34,370 nt of DNA from Coriobacteriaceae bacterium (GTDB taxonomy: Bacteria > Actinomycetota > Coriobacteriia > Coriobacteriales > UBA8131), in the NCBI GenBank assembly GCA_012515495.1, contig JAAYYH010000075.1, forward strand, positions 1-34,370. Reading direction: 5' to 3'. Shown in pieces: positions 5,997 through 19,008 of the stretch. Below the pieces are notes generated by a model. It saw nothing but the letters and a program-made list of their open reading frames with translations, made no database searches and was not told the DNA's origin. The first letter of the stretch is position 1. Every line of letters starts with the position of its first letter. A program made the position numbers and the translations under genes.

Positions 5997-8576
5997 ATGG
6001 CATTCGAGAGATTCACTGACAAGGCACGCAATGTGCTGGCATTGGCTCAGGAAGAGGCTCGCTCACTCAAACAACCCTACGTTGGCACAGAGCATATGCT
6101 CTTGGGGCTGCTGCGCGAGCGCGAGGGTCTTGCCGCCCAAGCTCTGAGCAACCTCAGCATCACCTACGAACAGGTGCTGGCACAGGTGAAGACCATCATA
6201 GAGGTCGATCCCAATGCCCCAACCGGGCATTTGAGCTTCACGCCGCGCGTCAAACGCGTGCTGGAGTTCGCTTTGCGTGAGACCATGCAACTGGGACAGA
6301 ATTACATCTCCACGGAGCATCTATTGCTGGGTATCGTCCGCGAGGGCAACGGCGTGGCTATCCAGGCCTTATCGCAGATGGGTATCGACGCATCGATGGT
6401 CAAGGGCGCCCTGATGGATCTGTTACATCAGACAAGCTCATACGCCGGGCCGCAGGATTACATGGACGAGGACTACAACGAAAGCGGCGACATCCTTGAG
6501 GAGTTTGGCACAAATCTCACTCAGCAGGCTCAGGAGGGTAAGCTGGATCCGGTGGTTGGCCGCGAGGCTGAGATTGAACGCGTGATGCAGATCCTGTCCC
6601 GTCGCACGAAGAACAACCCACTGCTTCTGGGCGATCCAGGCGTGGGTAAGACAGCTATCGCCGAGGGCTTGGCTCAGTTGATCGCCAGCGAACAGGTGCC
6701 GGATATCCTTCGCCACAAGCAACTGATCACCTTAGATGTTGCAGCTCTGGTAGCTGGTTCCAAATACCGTGGAGAATTCGAAGATCGCCTGAAGAAAGTT
6801 GTCAAGGAGGTCAAGGATACCGGCAATATCATCCTGTTCATCGATGAGATGCATACATTGATCGGTGCGGGCAGTGCCGAGGGTTCAATCGATGCCGCCG
6901 CTATCCTCAAACCGCCTCTCAGTCGTGGTGAGATCCAGGTTATCGGAGCGACTACACATGATGAGTACCGCAAACATGTCGAGAAGGACTCGGCTTTGGA
7001 GCGTCGTTTCCAGCCAGTGACAATCAGCGAGCCCACCAGTGAGCAGTCTGTCAAGATCCTCGAGGGTCTCCGCGACCGTTACGAGGCTCATCACCGTGTG
7101 CGATTCACAGATGAAGCGTTGCAGGCTGCCGTGTCATTGTCCGACCGCTATGTTCAGGATCGCTTCCTGCCTGACAAGGCCATCGATGTCATCGATGAAG
7201 CTGGCGCTCGTATGCGCATCAGGAATATGACAATTCCCTCAGAGGTCCATGACATGGACGAGAAGATCCGCAAGGTCAGGGCCGAGAAGGAAGAGGCCAT
7301 CAATATCCAGGACTTCGAGAAGGCTGCCAAACTGCGTGATGACGAGAAACAGCTGATGCAGCAGCGTGAACAGCTGGAGGAGAAATGGCGCGAGAGTACA
7401 TCTCGCAACATCGTCAGTGTCACCGAGAAGGAGATCGCCGATATCATCTCGATGTCAACCGGTGTGCCGGTAGCTGACTTGACCGAAGCTGAGACTGAGA
7501 AGCTGTTGCGCATGGAACAAGTATTGCACGAACGAATCATTGGTCAGGAGGAGGCGGTAAGCGCCATCTCCAAAGCTATCCGCCGTTCACGCGCTGGATT
7601 GAAAGACCCCAAGCGTCCGGCTGGTTCGTTCATCTTCTTAGGCCCCAGTGGCGTAGGCAAGACAGAACTCTCCAAGGCGTTGGCAGAATTCCTCTTCAGC
7701 AGTGAGGAAGCGCTCGTATCCTTTGACATGTCAGAGTATATGGAGAAGCATACCGTATCACGTCTGGTTGGCTCGCCTCCAGGCTATGTGGGCTACGATG
7801 AGGGTGGACAGCTGACTAAGGCTGTCAGGCAGAAGCCGTATTCAGTATTGTTGTTCGACGAGATCGAGAAGGCGCATCCTGATGTCTTCAACATCCTGCT
7901 GCAGATACTCGAAGAGGGTCGCCTGACCGATGGTCAGGGTCGTAAGGTCGACTTCCGCAACACCATCATCATTATGACTTCCAATGTTGGCGCCCGCGAG
8001 ATCGCTCAGGGAACTCCGATTGGTTTCTCGGGATTGGACTCCAAGACCGGCTTGTCGGACAAGGAGATCAACAGCCGCGTGATGACAGAGATGAAGAAGC
8101 TCTTCAGGCCGGAATTCCTCAACCGTATCGATGACATCATCGTCTTCAAGTCGCTGACTAAGGCACAGATCGCTCAGATCGTCGAATTGATGATCTCGGA
8201 TCTGCGTGATCGCCTGATCACCCAGAATATGACTATCAACCTCAGCGATTCGGCTCGTAATTTCATTGCCGAGGAGGGTACCGATGTGACTTTCGGTGCC
8301 AGACCGTTGCGTCGGGCGATCCAAAGGCTGGTGGAAGACCCCATCTCCGAGCAGGTACTTGAGGGAAAGTGGAGATCCGGTGATGTGATCGAGGCCGATT
8401 ACAACGGCGAGGAGATCGTCTTCACACATGGATCAGGCCCGATCCCCGAACCTCGTAAGCGGCAATCCATCGCGCGTGAGCAAGAGTTAGTGACACCGAT
8501 CTTCGGTGCCGCGGCCAACAAAGGTAGCGGATCAGCATCGGGTGGCTCTGGCCTCCAGGCTGAAAACGGGGCATAA
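5997..8576 (+). CDS. clpC: ATP-dependent Clp protease ATP-binding subunit ClpC
   Basis: Duplicated Clp_N repeats. Two AAA+ modules with Walker A sequences GDPGVGKT and [11 protein letters not shown]-like linker ([14 protein letters not shown]). 859 aa. Confidence 0.95.
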
Positions 8577-8585
8577 TCGACTACG

Positions 8586-8615
8586 AGCGGGATGCATGAT
8601 GTGTCCCGCTTTTTG
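8586..8615 (+). terminator. Rho-independent terminator after clpC
   Basis: Stem AGCGGGA (8586-8592) pairs with TCCCGCT (8604-8610) around an 11-nt loop, followed by TTTTG. Confidence 0.6.
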
Positions 8616-8722
8616 TCTCGACTTTACGGCAACGACGAATCAGCGTTGCCGTGATTTCTGCTATTCTTCAACCTGAGCACTGCAAAAGGGGAAACTTCAC
8701 AATGGAATCGGAAGGGATGACC

Positions 8723-9793
8723 ATGGACAAGGTGCATAAGATAATACCCAAGACCAGCGGAGAGATATTCGATATCGCGGTTAGCAGGATCGCATCTGGT
8801 TCACCCCTTCGAGACACTATCGAAATGATCATCGCCGCGCAGAATGGTGCCTTGATCTGCATGGGCGACGTCAAAGCCATCCTCGAGTTGGGCAATGGTG
8901 GTTTCCGAATCGATGTGCCCTACACCCCTCAAAGACTATTCGAGCTCTCCAAGATGGATGGCGCTATCGTGCTATCAGAGGATGGCTCCCAGATCATCTG
9001 CGCGAACTTCCATCTCAATCCTGACCCCAGTCTGCTCACCTACGAAACCGGAATGCGCCATCGAACCGCCGCGAGGACCAGCGCTCAGACTGACGCTATC
9101 GTCATCGCGATATCCAAGCGACGTACGCAGACGACGATTTACTGCAAGGGAGAAGGCATTAACCTCGATTCCGATGAGATCTTGCTTTCAAAGGGCAACC
9201 AGGGCATCCTCGCTTTACAGAATGCCAAGAATTCTCTAGAGAAAGCCGCTATCCGTCTAACATTCCTCGAATTGGACGACATCGTTACTGCAGTGGACGT
9301 CGCAGCGATCCTCTCTCGCTATGCTAACCTGATGAATCTGGCTGCCCAGACTGAGCGTTTCGTACATTTCCTGGGCAACAACAGTGGACTTCTAGAGATG
9401 CAGCTTGAGGATATCATGGCTGGTGTCACTGATTCGTTCATACTGACTATCCGTGATTACGCTGTGACGGCGGCAGAGCGAGAGGCCAAGCGGATCGCCA
9501 AACTACTGGTTAAGTTGCCGCGAGAGGAGCTGACCATGACAAATGTCATGACCGCCCTGGGGCATACCAAGGTGAAATCCGATGAGGATCATCTTCAAGC
9601 TCGTGGACTTAGGGTGATCTCGCGACTTTCAATGGTCGATGAGGCAGCAGCGGTCCGCATCATCGATGAGTATGGCTCATTATCTGCCATCGTCAGCGAT
9701 TCGAAAGATGGTTTCGACCGTCTGGATAACACCGGTCTGGAGAACGTTAGAGCCATAGCGGCCAGTTTTAAGCAGTTGCGCAGTACACTCTAG
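8723..9793 (+). CDS. disA: DNA integrity scanning protein DisA (diadenylate cyclase)
   Basis: DAC domain motifs DGAIVLSEDG and GMRHRTAARTS, a linker, and a C-terminal HhH region. ATG 8723 has GGAAGGG 6 nt upstream. Alternative starts are 8651 (GTG), 8702 and 8717. Confidence 0.88.
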   Translation: MDKVHKIIPKTSGEIFDIAVSRIASGSPLRDTIEMIIAAQNGALICMGDVKAILELGNGGFRIDVPYTPQRLFELSKMDGAIVLSEDGSQIICANFHLNPDPSLLTYETGMRHRTAARTSAQTDAIVIAISKRRTQTTIYCKGEGINLDSDEILLSKGNQGILALQNAKNSLEKAAIRLTFLELDDIVTAVDVAAILSRYANLMNLAAQTERFVHFLGNNSGLLEMQLEDIMAGVTDSFILTIRDYAVTAAEREAKRIAKLLVKLPREELTMTNVMTALGHTKVKSDEDHLQARGLRVISRLSMVDEAAAVRIIDEYGSLSAIVSDSKDGFDRLDNTGLENVRAIAASFKQLRSTL

Positions 9794-14727: not shown

Positions 14728-16308
14728 TTGACAGACAATGATTACAGAGACGAGCAGGGCGGAGTCTTGCCGCAACCAATGAGCGAACAGACCCTCCAGC
14801 GTCTTGCCGAGAATCGAGAGCGTCGTGAAGAGCAACGCATCGCGCGCGCGGCCAAACGCAGGCGCCGCAAGATCATCGTGCTGCTTGCTGCCCTCGTCGT
14901 CTTGGCGGTGGCTGTTTATAGTGGCGGCGTGGCACACTTCTCTGGTCACTTCATGAACAAGACATCGTTGGGCAGCGTCGATATCTCCGGCAAGACGACT
15001 GCAGAGGTTCAGGCGTTACTGGATGATACGACTGCCTCCTATTCGCTCACAATCAGCGATTATGGATTTGAGACCAGCATCCAGGCAGCGGATATCAATT
15101 TCTCCTTAGATCAAAACTGCACAGCAGAGGCACTGATCGCTAAACGTAATCCCTTCATCTGGCCTTATGAGATGATGTTCGTCAGAGATTTGGCAGAGTA
15201 TCTACAGGTCACCTACGATGAACAGGCGCTGTTCGCTCTGCTGCAAGTTGCTGTCGATGAGCACAATCAGCATGCCGAACCTCCAAAGGAGGAAAGCATC
15301 GTCTTTGATCAGGAAACTAAAACGTTCGCGTATAGTGGACCTATCGCAGGGACACATCTGATATATGAGCAGGTCCTGATCAAGACACAAGATGCTCTTG
15401 CAAACCTGAGGTCTGTGTTGGAATTAGGCGATGATTGTGTTGTGCAGCCAGCTGCTGGAGGCAATGAAGCACAGCTGACAGCTGCGGCCAAGCAGGCGAA
15501 CAGGCTTTGCGATCAGTACCATATCACCTTCATGTTGGGAGATTCGGCTTCGCTGGTCGTAGATTCTGCGCAGGCGGCGCAATGGATCACCATCGATGAG
15601 GAGTATTCCGTCTCTCTCGATCAAGGCAAGATCGACTCCTGGATCGACTCAATCTGCGCCCTGCTCAACTCCAAAGGAGGCGAGCGCACCTATCTGCGAC
15701 CTGACGGCAAGGAGGTGACTGTCTCGGGGGGAAGCTACGGTTGGGCAGCCGATCGTGACGCTACTGCGAAGCTGATCAGGGATGCCATTGCTCAGAAGCC
15801 GAAGCAAAACGTATACATCCCCTGTGCTGTGGTAGGAAATGGTTTCCTCGGCCTACCCGGTGCGGATTGGGGAAAGCGTTATATCGACGTGGATATCAGT
15901 GAGCAGTATGCCCGATTCTACGATGACGACGGCAACCTCATCTGGGAGACGGATGTCATCACCGGAACCCGATGGACAGATTTTGAGACACCTTCGGGTG
16001 TCAATACGATCCAGTACAAGGCGAGTCCCAAGTCGCTGCGATCGACGGGTACCTATACCATCTACAACGACGATGGTACCGTCACCATTGAGGAGGACCA
16101 CGTATTCGGCCGCGACGTTGAGTATTGGATGCCCTTCATCAATGACTTCATCGGACTCCATGATGCCTGGTGGCAGGACTCATTCGGCGGTAGCCTCTAT
16201 GAGGATGCCAGTCATGGTAGTGGCGGTTGTATAAATCTACCTTCTGATAAGGCAGCCGAGCTTTACGACCTTGTTCGTGTCGGTGATGTGGTGGTTACTC
16301 ACTGGTAG
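14728..16308 (+). CDS. L,D-transpeptidase family protein (N-terminal TM anchor, Ldt-type N-domains, C-terminal YkuD catalytic domain)
   Basis: Basic stretch plus TM helix (KRRRRKIIVLLAALVVLAVAV). The C-terminus GLHDAWW...SHGSGGCINLPSDKAAELYDLV is the YkuD His/Cys catalytic region. The start is TTG 14728 or ATG 14779. Confidence 0.85.
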   Translation: MTDNDYRDEQGGVLPQPMSEQTLQRLAENRERREEQRIARAAKRRRRKIIVLLAALVVLAVAVYSGGVAHFSGHFMNKTSLGSVDISGKTTAEVQALLDDTTASYSLTISDYGFETSIQAADINFSLDQNCTAEALIAKRNPFIWPYEMMFVRDLAEYLQVTYDEQALFALLQVAVDEHNQHAEPPKEESIVFDQETKTFAYSGPIAGTHLIYEQVLIKTQDALANLRSVLELGDDCVVQPAAGGNEAQLTAAAKQANRLCDQYHITFMLGDSASLVVDSAQAAQWITIDEEYSVSLDQGKIDSWIDSICALLNSKGGERTYLRPDGKEVTVSGGSYGWAADRDATAKLIRDAIAQKPKQNVYIPCAVVGNGFLGLPGADWGKRYIDVDISEQYARFYDDDGNLIWETDVITGTRWTDFETPSGVNTIQYKASPKSLRSTGTYTIYNDDGTVTIEEDHVFGRDVEYWMPFINDFIGLHDAWWQDSFGGSLYEDASHGSGGCINLPSDKAAELYDLVRVGDVVVTHW

Positions 16309-16395
16309 TATCTGATGACAGTACCTCAAGAGAATCTACGACAGTATCAGAGCATGATCATCAAATTATAATGGCGGATACGCTCAGGCGATGCC

Positions 16396-16424
16396 TTGAC
16401 AGCGAGCAGTTGTTCGTATACCCT
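16396..16424 (+). promoter_or_regulatory. Putative promoter of the radical SAM/DUF4130 operon
   Basis: TTGACA (16396-16401), 17-nt spacer, TACCCT (16419-16424). The -10 fits the TANNNT type. Confidence 0.5.
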
Positions 16425-16427
16425 GAA

Positions 16428-16444
16428 TCGAACAAATGTTCTGA
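16428..16444 (+). promoter_or_regulatory. Putative LexA operator (SOS box)
   Basis: The sequence is TCGAAC-AAAT-GTTCTGA. The left half is a perfect actinobacterial TCGAAC. The core CGAAC-N4-GTTC matches the Gram-positive Cheo-box consensus CGAACRNRYGTTYC. It lies 3 nt downstream of the -10 hexamer. Confidence 0.6.
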
Positions 16445-16547
16445 TATCAGACCGAGATCGCGTCGTTGAGAACGATGCATCTGCGCGGCGAGCAAAACGC
16501 AAACGCAACGTTTAGCAGGCCGAATCCAGGCACCGGGAGCGTGAATC

Positions 16548-17864
16548 TTGGAACTTCTCGACAAACTGACCATTCTGGCGGATGCCGCGAAATACGATGT
16601 GGCCTGTACCTCAAGCGGAGTGAACCGCTCTGCAGTCAAGGGCAAGCTTGGCTCGACCGCCAGCGCCGGTATCTGCCATACCTTCTCAGCTGATGGTCGC
16701 TGCATCACACTGCTCAAGGTGCTGATGTCCAATGCTTGTAGCTATGATTGTACCTACTGCGTGAACCGCCGCAGCAATGACGTTCCGCGTGCAACATTCA
16801 CACCGCGTGAACTGGCGGAACTGACCATCGGTTTCTATCGCCGCAACTACATCGAGGGGCTGTTCCTCTCTTCCGGTGTGCTGCGCAATCCGGACTACAC
16901 CACCGAACAGATGTGTGAGGCTATCCGCCTGCTGCGTGGTGAATATGGCTTCAACGGATATATCCATGCCAAGGCGATTCCGGGCACCTCCAAGGAGCTT
17001 CTCACCCGTCTCGGTGTCTTGGTCGATCGCATGAGCCTGAACATCGAATTCCCCTCTGAGACCAGTCTGCGGCAACTGGCACCGGACAAAAGCGGTCAAA
17101 CCGTGTTGGAACCGATGCGCTTCGTGCGTGATGGGATCAAGGATAATATTCGGGATAAGACGACGAGCATCGTTAAGCGTACACGCTTTGTCCCAGCTGG
17201 TCAGAGTACGCAGATGATTGTGGGGGCCTCGCCGGAAAGCGACTATCAGATCCTCAATCTCAGTGCCAGTCTCTACAGCACACTGGAGCTCAAACGGGTG
17301 TTCTTCAGTGCGTATCTACCTGTGAACTCAGACCCATTGTTGCCTCAGGTCACAAAGGCACCCTTGTTGCGTGAGCATCGGCTCTATCAGGCCGACTGGC
17401 TGATGCGTTTCTATCACTTCGATGTCAATGAGATCATCGATGAACAAAATCCCTCCCTTGATCCGCTCATCGATCCTAAATGCAATTGGGCGCTCAATCA
17501 TATCGACCTCTTTCCTGCCGAGATCAACAAGGTGCCCTACGAGATGTTGCTGCGTATCCCCGGAATTGGCGTGAAGGGGGCCAGCCGTATCGCCAAAGCC
17601 AGGCGGGAACGGACATTGGCATTCGAGGATTTGAGTAGGCTGAATGTCTCCATTCGGCGAGCCAGACACTTCATCACCTGTAACGGCAGATTTGCAGATG
17701 GCCTGTTATTCGATCCGGCCTCAATCTATGACAGCCTTACCTGCGAGGTTCGCAATCGGCACTATAAAGGCGTGCTCGACGGCCAGCTGTCGCTTTTCGG
17801 TGAAAGCGGACTCACTCGCGAAGCATCCACGCAACCGCTGGAGTTGGCCTCATGGGCGAGTTGA
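16548..17864 (+). CDS. Putative DNA modification/repair radical SAM protein (TIGR03916-like)
   Basis: Family N-terminus LDKLTILADAAKYDVACTSSG. Radical SAM cluster motif CSYDCTYC at 16737-16760. C-terminal HhH (LLRIPGIGVKGASRIAKAR). TTG start. Confidence 0.88.
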   Translation: MELLDKLTILADAAKYDVACTSSGVNRSAVKGKLGSTASAGICHTFSADGRCITLLKVLMSNACSYDCTYCVNRRSNDVPRATFTPRELAELTIGFYRRNYIEGLFLSSGVLRNPDYTTEQMCEAIRLLRGEYGFNGYIHAKAIPGTSKELLTRLGVLVDRMSLNIEFPSETSLRQLAPDKSGQTVLEPMRFVRDGIKDNIRDKTTSIVKRTRFVPAGQSTQMIVGASPESDYQILNLSASLYSTLELKRVFFSAYLPVNSDPLLPQVTKAPLLREHRLYQADWLMRFYHFDVNEIIDEQNPSLDPLIDPKCNWALNHIDLFPAEINKVPYEMLLRIPGIGVKGASRIAKARRERTLAFEDLSRLNVSIRRARHFITCNGRFADGLLFDPASIYDSLTCEVRNRHYKGVLDGQLSLFGESGLTREASTQPLELASWAS

Positions 17865-18730
17865 CATCCGATCACCTTTTAAACGATGGCAGGCTGACCT
17901 GTCTCTACGATGGCTCATTCGAAGGCTTGCTCAGTGCTATCTTCTGGGTTTTCGAGCACAAGGAGAATCCGGTCGACATCGTTATCGAGGAGAATCTGCA
18001 GTCCGGTTTCGACCAAGTGATCACAACAATCGACACTGACATCAAAAAAGCGGAGAGGGTCAAGGCCGGTATCATCCGTTCTCTGGGTTATCAGGCATAT
18101 AAAGATGTTCGTTGTGTCTTCTTGTCTGACGATGAGCGTAAAGGCAGAGTGATGCTGCGCTTCCTGCAATATAGTCTGAAAAGGGGAGCGAGATCGCGTT
18201 CAGATCTCGCTGAGCCGATCATCGCTGACTTCGATGCCCTGCTGCGGGCGGTGAATCGCGAGATTCATTATCAACTGCAGTTCATTCGCTTCTCGGAGCT
18301 GCGAAACGGTATCTTCTTTGCCAAGATCCATCCCAAGGCCAACGTTGTTCCCTTGATCATGAGTCATTTTGCTGCACGGCTGAACATCCAACCTTTCATG
18401 ATCTTCGATGAGAAACACGCACTGGCTGGGATCTACGATTGTCAGCGTTGGTGGATGGTCGAGGCGGAAGCGGTCTCAGTACCTGATCAGTGCGCTCGAC
18501 AAGATGAATATCAGGCACTCTGGCAGACGTTCTATGACACCATCGCCATCGAGGAGCGCGCCAATCTCACGTGTCGGCGTAATTTCATGCCCAAGCGATT
18601 CTGGGGCGATCTTTGCGAGATGATCCCCCATGAGCTACGCAAGGGACAACCACAGACTGCGACGCCTACCGCCTGCGCGAGACTTGCTGGAGAACAGAGT
18701 AGAAAATCTCTGCAAAGTCCGTTAAACTAA
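17852..18730 (+). CDS. DUF4130 / TIGR03915-like probable DNA metabolism protein (no fused uracil-DNA glycosylase domain)
   Basis: N-terminus LYDGSFEGLLSAIFWVFE, plus FIRFSEL...FFAKIHPKANVVPLIMSHFAARL and WQTFYDTIAIEERAN, are typical of the family that partners the radical SAM protein. It overlaps the upstream gene by 13 nt, suggesting translational coupling. Confidence 0.82.
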   Translation: MGELTSDHLLNDGRLTCLYDGSFEGLLSAIFWVFEHKENPVDIVIEENLQSGFDQVITTIDTDIKKAERVKAGIIRSLGYQAYKDVRCVFLSDDERKGRVMLRFLQYSLKRGARSRSDLAEPIIADFDALLRAVNREIHYQLQFIRFSELRNGIFFAKIHPKANVVPLIMSHFAARLNIQPFMIFDEKHALAGIYDCQRWWMVEAEAVSVPDQCARQDEYQALWQTFYDTIAIEERANLTCRRNFMPKRFWGDLCEMIPHELRKGQPQTATPTACARLAGEQSRKSLQSPLN

Positions 18731-18810: not shown

Positions 18811-18885
18811 GCTGATGTGGCGCAACGGTAGCGCATCTGATTTGTAATCAGACGGTTGCAGGTTCAAATCCTGTCATCAGCTCCA
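18811..18885 (+). tRNA. tRNA-Thr (anticodon TGT), encoded CCA
   Basis: Acceptor GCTGATG/CATCAGC. D arm GCGC/AACGGTA/GCGC. Anticodon arm TCTGA/TTTGTAA/TCAGA. T arm GCAGG/TTCAAAT/CCTGT. Discriminator T followed by CCA. Confidence 0.9.
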
Positions 18886-18895
18886 TGGATCAACC

Positions 18896-18922
18896 GACAC
18901 CCGCCAACAGCGGGTGTCTTTC
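18896..18922 (+). terminator. Rho-independent terminator after tRNA-Thr
   Basis: Stem GACACCCGC (18896-18904) pairs with GCGGGTGTC (18910-18918) around loop CAACA, followed by TTTCT. It lies between convergent transcription units. Confidence 0.6.
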
Positions 18923-19008
18923 TCGGATTAGCATCTAGTTGACCGTGGCGTCGTTACAGCTTTGATCAGAATGGTCGAGCTGTCGGGTCCGTCGTCGTCG
19001 TGCGAGGC

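Follow-up and report, generated by a model that had tools for sequence, protein, structure and literature searches.

Introduction

In Escherichia coli, the lexA, recN and colicin genes are transcribed from multi-operator SOS promoters, in which two LexA boxes overlap the core promoter, an arrangement associated with tight repression and late induction. Among the gene products found in SOS regulons, COG4277 is what we take to be the radical-SAM protein TIGR03916, and COG1573 is presumably the uracil-DNA glycosylase (UDG) that is often fused to DUF4130. Verrucomicrobia, Alphaproteobacteria and Bacteroidetes are reported to possess a COG1573-COG4277 'uracil-DNA glycosylase base-excision' operon that belongs to their SOS regulons (PMC8565304 and references therein; Erill and Barbé groups), and Aravind and colleagues associated DUF4130 with radical-SAM enzymes and with UDGs in the setting of the SOS response (PMC3765255). 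In Clostridium acetobutylicum, the CAC3343-CAC3344 operon was predicted in 2013 to be LexA-controlled, based on footprinting and on co-expression with lexA, recA and uvrB (PMC3828012). Radical-SAM and TIGR03915 genes of Acinetobacter were assigned to the DdaA DNA-damage regulon (PMC12392091), and a 2026 preprint predicted that radical-SAM and DUF4130 proteins pair as a heterodimer, with single-stranded nucleic acid as the ligand. Furthermore, the radical-SAM gene vnz_31145 of S. venezuelae, presumably of the SplB type (COG1533), has ChIP-seq support and is induced 20-fold by mitomycin C (PMC9380542), and SplB-type radical-SAM genes have been placed in a 'core Gram-positive SOS regulon' (PMC7739468). 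The CGAAC-N4-GTTCG-type palindrome is the experimentally established LexA motif of Actinobacteria and Firmicutes (PMC9380542, PMC7739468).

Here we analyze a radical-SAM/DUF4130 cassette on a 34,370-bp stretch of DNA (hereafter the window), which is the whole contig of an uncultured 'Coriobacteriaceae bacterium' metagenome-assembled genome (MAG). A literature search for the SOS regulon of Coriobacteriia or Eggerthella returned nothing relevant, and the LexA motif used throughout is the wider Actinobacteria/Firmicutes consensus, which we assumed for Coriobacteriia. We consider it very probable that LexA occludes the promoter of the cassette by means of two boxes and that DNA damage derepresses the operon.

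Results and discussion

Promoter region and genes of the cassette

The first-pass annotation of this DNA had highlighted a single SOS box at 16428-16444, located 3 nt after a TTGACA-17-TACCCT promoter and about 105 nt upstream of the TTG start of a radical SAM/DUF4130 operon. The coordinates, the sequence and the CGAAC-N4-GTTC core of this box (box 2 in the following) were all exact, as were the positions of the hexamers, and the distance to the start codon was measured as 103 nt. The accompanying remark that the window held no other site was right for the exact core, which is single, but overlooked a site with one mismatch (box 1). The features of the region are:

16396-16401, + strand: -35 hexamer TTGACA, perfect consensus, invariant in the seven-species alignment
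16402-16418: spacer of 17 nt between -35 and -10, read from the sequence
16403-16416, no strand assigned: predicted LexA box 1, CGAGCAGTTGTTCG, within the -35/-10 spacer, one mismatch to CGAACNNNNGTTCG
16419-16424, + strand: -10-like hexamer TACCCT, 17 nt after the -35 hexamer, 3/6 match to TATAAT including A2 and T6
16425-16427: GAA between the -10-like hexamer and box 2, read from the sequence
16428-16444, no strand assigned: predicted LexA box 2, TCGAACAAATGTTCTGA, core at 16429-16442, exact CGAAC-N4-GTTC
16535-16539, + strand: GGGAG, putative ribosome-binding site at a distance of 8 nt from the start codon, read from the sequence
16548, + strand: TTG start codon, 103 nt from the end of box 2
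16548-17864, + strand: radical-SAM gene, TIGR03916 (NCBIfam 619 bits, cutoff 343.5; Pfam Radical_SAM and Fer4_12)
17852-18730, + strand: DUF4130/TIGR03915 gene, 292 aa (TIGR03915 229.7 bits, cutoff 112.25; Pfam DUF4130 150 bits)
18811-18885, + strand: tRNA-Thr(UGU) gene, 80 nt after the DUF4130 stop codon
18896-18924, + strand: hairpin resembling a terminator, with a G+C-rich stem of 9 bp and a TTTCTC tail (-18.4 kcal/mol, z = -3.27)

Box 1 was found by a scan with CGAACNNNNGTTCG in which mismatches were allowed; its mismatch, GAGC for GAAC, lies inside the conserved core. It begins 1 base after the -35 hexamer, fills the spacer and is placed 26 bp upstream of box 2, which starts 3 nt after the -10-like hexamer and differs at one position from the CGAAC-N4-GTTCG 14-mer. 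Box 2 would cover the expected transcription start, some 7 nt after the -10. With box 1 filling the -35/-10 spacer, the repressor-occlusion geometry that had been put forward for box 2 turned out to be stronger than claimed.

The gene identities that had been proposed for the cassette were confirmed by scores above cutoff for both families. The radical-SAM protein contains the cluster motif CSYDCTYC (C-SYD-C-TY-C), which fits CxxxCxxC. A helix-hairpin-helix-like segment, PGIGVKGASRI, is visible in the same protein, and relatives carry PF12836, while Pfam gave no HhH match for it at E <= 0.001. The DUF4130 gene overlaps the radical-SAM gene by 13 nt. A Pfam search of its 292-aa product returned DUF4130 only and no uracil-DNA glycosylase domain; a UDG domain fused to the DUF4130 partner is optional and occurs in part of the family only. 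The L,D-transpeptidase gene upstream of the cassette (14728-16308) runs in the same direction, so that the intergenic region of 239 bp can serve the cassette only. At the other end, no terminator was found between the cassette and tRNA-Thr; co-transcription of the tRNA with the SOS operon is therefore possible, and tRNA-Thr might be transcribed together with the cassette. The hairpin at 18896-18924 is a possible end of the transcription unit.

The window also contains, at 5997-9793, a gene for a ClpC-like ATPase (5997-8576) and, directly behind it, disA (8651-9793); radA, which separates clpC from disA in many Gram-positive genomes, is absent from this position.

Conservation of the two-box promoter

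A scan of one genome per species yielded 80 loci with relatives of the radical-SAM protein (10 from Coriobacteriia, about 41 from Bacillota and other groups, 29 from Bacteroidota), and in 76 of these loci the next gene after the radical-SAM gene was a DUF4130 homologue. Upstream regions were aligned for seven species, namely the window and six Coriobacteriales/Eggerthellales loci, the radical-SAM proteins of which share 74-90% identity with that of the window. The only conserved blocks were TTGACA, box 1, the -10-like hexamer and box 2, with flanks that were not conserved. The -10-like hexamer occupied the same place in all seven species, reading TAnnnT in six and CATAGT in L005 (TACCCT, TAGACT, TAGTAT, TAGGAT, CATAGT and TATCCT were the hexamers seen at the -10 position among relatives). 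The start-codon column was NTG in all seven, thus supporting the TTG at 16548, and a GGAG-type element precedes the aligned start codon in the relatives too. The distance between box 2 and the start codon (5' UTR) ranged from 16 to 142 nt among relatives and was not conserved, making a conserved leader unlikely; an Rfam search, run to detect a 5'-UTR element in this interval, returned tRNAs only.

The layout of -35, box 1, -10-like hexamer and box 2 extended to 10/10 other Coriobacteriia loci, including four more distant ones (L008, L017 from Eggerthellaceae, L030 from Slackia and L045 from Atopobiaceae). All ten carry TTGACA or a near match at the -35 position, and box 1 of the window aligns with box 1 of every Coriobacteriia orthologue. 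The distance between the boxes was 26-28 bp in eight of the ten and 35 bp in L008 and L017. The box consensus for Coriobacteriia was nCGAACAnnTGTTCGn. Sites with at most one mismatch were confined to the upstream regions of the Coriobacteriia loci, with 16 in 2,479 bp upstream versus 0 in 93,276 bp elsewhere. Many Bacillota loci also carry the box upstream of the cassette; in the Bacillota and other loci we counted 20 such sites in 10,422 bp upstream versus 16 in 383,801 bp elsewhere. The first-pass annotation had proposed that a genuine operator should recur upstream of orthologous cassettes, and it did so in all ten other Coriobacteriia loci and in many Bacillota. No box was found within 260 nt in 23 of the 41 Bacillota and other loci, showing that the link between box and cassette is not universal.

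The gene preceding the cassette varies. In L003 (90-614) and L004 (4321-5426), the cassette follows rlmB-yacP, while an L,D-transpeptidase gene lies immediately upstream in the window (14728-16308) and in its closest relative L001 (3-1070); in the window, this gene separates yacP from the cassette. Both contexts, behind yacP and behind the L,D-transpeptidase gene, show the same promoter-operator module.

For the Bacteroidota loci, we examined the two LexA motifs of Bacteroidetes. The motif CTAA-N5-TTAG (PMC8565304) was about 44-fold enriched upstream of the cassette and often paired, thus reproducing the link between cassette and SOS response across phyla. In the sampled Bacteroidota loci, the other Bacteroidetes motif, GGA-N5-TCC, showed no enrichment upstream of the cassette. 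Pairs of CTAA-N5-TTAG spaced 18-19 bp apart were observed about 75-110 nt upstream of the radical-SAM gene (L057:5893-5925, L062, L070 and L080), indicating that paired operators recur even with a different motif.

Assignment of the motif to LexA

Neither lexA nor recA was found in the 34,370-bp window. The corresponding search in the 80 related loci gave S24-domain matches only, in L011, L028 and L031, and these proteins were rejected as canonical LexA, since they are HTH_3 (XRE) plus Peptidase_S24 proteins instead. When metagenome contigs were scanned for pairs of perfect boxes separated by 10-16 nt, at least 120 loci (L081-L200) were obtained, and 141 ORFs starting within 150 nt of the two-box sites were counted among the matches listed. 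LexA_DNA_bind was present in at least 26 and Peptidase_S24 in at least 25 of these ORFs, and the commonest neighbour among the matches listed was lexA. The LexA proteins concerned are canonical, with 45-57% identity to B. subtilis LexA. Other neighbours among the matches listed were LysM proteins (at least 11), UvrD/PcrA helicases (at least 6), a DinB-type IMS polymerase (at least 1) and Radical_SAM proteins (at least 5, of which at least 4 are TIGR03916 homologues divergent from a UvrD-type helicase gene). A TAnnnT hexamer was located between the boxes at many of the two-box loci. The neighbours of two-box sites thus represent an SOS gene set with lexA autoregulation at its top, which ties the motif to LexA.

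The LysM-protein ORFs at these loci (e.g., L081:636-986; at least 11 among the 141 listed) are usually divergent from lexA. LysM domains occur in the SOS cell-division inhibitors YneA and Rv2719c, and by analogy the LysM proteins beside the two-box sites resemble an SOS cell-division inhibitor of the YneA/Rv2719c type or a cell-wall hydrolase. In four loci (L140:2250-2291, L177:1938-1979, L193:3865-3906 and L200:4649-4690), the TIGR03916 gene is divergent from a UvrD/PcrA-type helicase gene encoding about 820 aa, and the two-box region between the divergent genes is identical in all four (GAACGCTTGTTCG-ATTTATACTATTACCA-GAACAACAGTTCG). A similar two-box region adjoins the same kind of UvrD/PcrA-type helicase in L176.

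The palindromes might, alternatively, be the operators of a regulator other than the housekeeping LexA, such as a LexA paralogue, an XRE-S24 repressor or an unrelated HTH dimer with a similar half-site, in which case induction might not follow the canonical SOS signal. The three Bacillota loci in which an HTH_3 plus Peptidase_S24 repressor gene adjoins a cassette devoid of boxes suggest that dedicated cassette regulators exist, and the Acinetobacter cassette is under the activator DdaA rather than LexA. No regulator gene adjoins the cassette in the window, however, and the motif in question is the experimentally established LexA consensus of Actinobacteria and Firmicutes (PMC7739468, PMC9380542), found in the same two-box arrangement most often beside canonical lexA (among the matches listed). 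We therefore regard control by such a regulator as improbable and favor LexA as the protein that would occupy the two boxes.

The XRE-S24 genes themselves encode proteins of 200-210 aa and lie directly beside the cassette (L028:5355-5960, + strand; L031:5063-5695, + strand; L011:98-727, - strand). In these genomes (Anaerofilum, Faecalibacterium and a Bacillota MAG), no CGAAC-N4-GTTCG box was present upstream of the radical-SAM gene, and no operator palindrome shared among the three loci was identified. The XRE-S24 gene may encode a repressor that is dedicated to the cassette, cleaves itself and stands in for canonical LexA control. PafBC/RecA-NDp-type control, which is known from a mycobacterial damage promoter, was also considered and set aside, as the -35 element here is a plain TTGACA.

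Assignment of the promoter

The promoter originally read as TTGACA-17-TACCCT was only partly upheld: TTGACA is invariant and the -10-like hexamer is conserved in the seven species, but a consensus promoter scan called no promoter at this position, because TACCCT matches TATAAT at only 3/6 positions. As a candidate sigma-70-type promoter, it is supported by conservation across 7-11 species, not by the consensus scan. A terminator scan found none between the L,D-transpeptidase gene and the boxes (the sole terminator-like match, at 17777, is inside the radical-SAM gene), so that some read-through transcription from the upstream gene is possible.

It is conceivable on these grounds that LexA binds but that the promoter is located elsewhere, or that transcripts read through from the L,D-transpeptidase gene, with LexA acting as a roadblock or modulator and no occlusion of polymerase. 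The incomplete hexamer, the uncalled promoter and the lack of a terminator after the upstream gene would be in line with such a misassignment. On the other hand, TTGACA and the -10-like hexamer have been kept at fixed spacing although their flanks diverged, and L003 and L004 possess the same module behind a different upstream gene (yacP). We consider the misassignment very unlikely, and retain promoter occlusion by LexA as the preferred reading.

Statistical evaluation of the boxes

The exact CGAAC-N4-GTTC core occurs once in the window against 0.28 expected, and at least one copy was present in 24/100 shuffles; on its own, the single exact core is not significant. Sites with at most one mismatch numbered 3 in the window versus 1.24 expected, and two of the three form the box pair. 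A pair of such sites 20-35 bp apart arose in 4/2000 first-order Markov simulations of the window. We also scored the window with a position-specific scoring matrix (PSSM) trained on the orthologous sites, leaving out the window's own sites. Box 2 reached 18.26, which is rank 1 of 34,355 window positions and equals the median of the orthologous training sites; scored against background, the site picked by eye thus proved to be the best in the window. Box 1 followed at rank 2 of 34,355 with 14.26, slightly under the weakest training site (15.0). Owing to the G in its GAAC core, box 1 is probably the weaker operator in this genome, and binding to it may be weak.

The origin of the boxes by chance, as intergenic matches with no regulatory role, could draw on the 0.28 single cores expected per window and the 24% of shuffles that contain one, but is effectively refuted by the conservation data, given a pair that appears in just 4/2000 simulations, is kept in 10/10 related loci, whose 93 kb of flanking sequence lack sites of this kind, and takes the top two PSSM ranks; we attach next to no probability to it.

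When the window is ranked by the LexA matrix, places three and four go to 16903-16918 and 17290-17305, which both fall within the radical-SAM coding sequence. They were rejected as extra operators and classified as coding by-products; the match at 16903 codes for the conserved peptide TEQMC and probably results from this coding role, not from a function as operator.

Proposed mechanism

We propose that the two-gene operon (TIGR03916 plus DUF4130/TIGR03915) is controlled by two LexA operators of the CGAAC-N4-GTTCG type that flank its -10 element. In undamaged cells, one LexA dimer would occupy the -35/-10 spacer and a second one the expected start site, and dimers on both boxes would block the binding of RNA polymerase or the formation of the open complex. 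Upon DNA damage, RecA on single-stranded DNA would trigger self-cleavage of LexA, the operators would be vacated and the operon would be transcribed. The two proteins it encodes are predicted to act as a heterodimer, with damaged or modified nucleic acid as the substrate. The sequences show the sites, their geometry, their conservation in the clade and the association of the motif with lexA promoters, while binding of both boxes by the LexA of this organism, a transcription start under box 2 and induction by damage are what we infer. In analogy to the multi-operator SOS promoters of E. coli, the presence of two operators would be expected to result in tight or late induction.

A more far-reaching model, which we offer tentatively and consider rather doubtful, concerns Coriobacteriia as a whole. 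According to this model, the cassette would belong to the core SOS genes and be subject to a fixed 'double lock' (a box abutting the -35 and a box over the start, 26-28 bp apart in most lineages). It would then rank among the most tightly repressed and late-induced damage functions of these strict anaerobes, which would imply that its radical-based DNA chemistry is hazardous or mutagenic if expressed in the absence of damage. Where the boxes were lost, a dedicated self-cleaving XRE-S24 repressor beside the cassette would take over in the same manner.

Significance

The analysis adds an uncharacterised radical-SAM/DUF4130 pair, which is very widespread, to the DNA-damage regulon predicted for Coriobacteriia, a gut actinobacterial class. 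Conserved across the whole clade, the promoter-operator module can be used as a ready reporter (16380-16460), and its matrix can serve to predict the other members of the regulon. The regulatory finding does not reveal the function of the cassette, and a specialist would not be surprised by it. The earlier view that the box provides a new handle on genes of unknown function was overstated, as LexA/SOS control of the cassette had already been published (PMC3828012, PMC8565304).

Comparison with known systems

CAC3343-CAC3344 of C. acetobutylicum shares with the window both the cassette and the Gram-positive LexA motif. It belongs to Bacillota, not to Coriobacteriia, and PMC3828012 describes no two-operator layout flanking the -10; relative to this operon, the window adds conservation across Coriobacteriia. 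The COG1573-COG4277 operon is likewise LexA-regulated, but through different LexA motifs in the phyla concerned, and its partner protein usually includes a UDG domain, whereas the partner in the window consists of DUF4130 alone and the motif is CGAAC-N4-GTTCG. The SplB-type genes resemble our case as LexA-repressed radical-SAM DNA-repair genes of Actinobacteria, repression being a prediction for the window, but they belong to a different, spore-photoproduct-lyase-like radical-SAM family (COG1533 versus TIGR03916, with vnz_31145 presumably in the former) and have no DUF4130 partner. The DdaA regulon of Acinetobacter also includes the cassette in a damage response, yet relies on a WYL-type activator and not on repression by LexA. 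The multi-operator promoters of E. coli use a different motif class (CTGT-N8-ACAG) and a spacing other than the 26-28 bp from centre to centre that is seen at most Coriobacteriia loci. Other phyla had already provided examples of damage inducibility of the cassette. The present work confirms and extends these and is not a discovery in itself; what is new here is the second operator, the clade-wide -35/box/-10/box module and the extension of a known regulatory link to Coriobacteriia.
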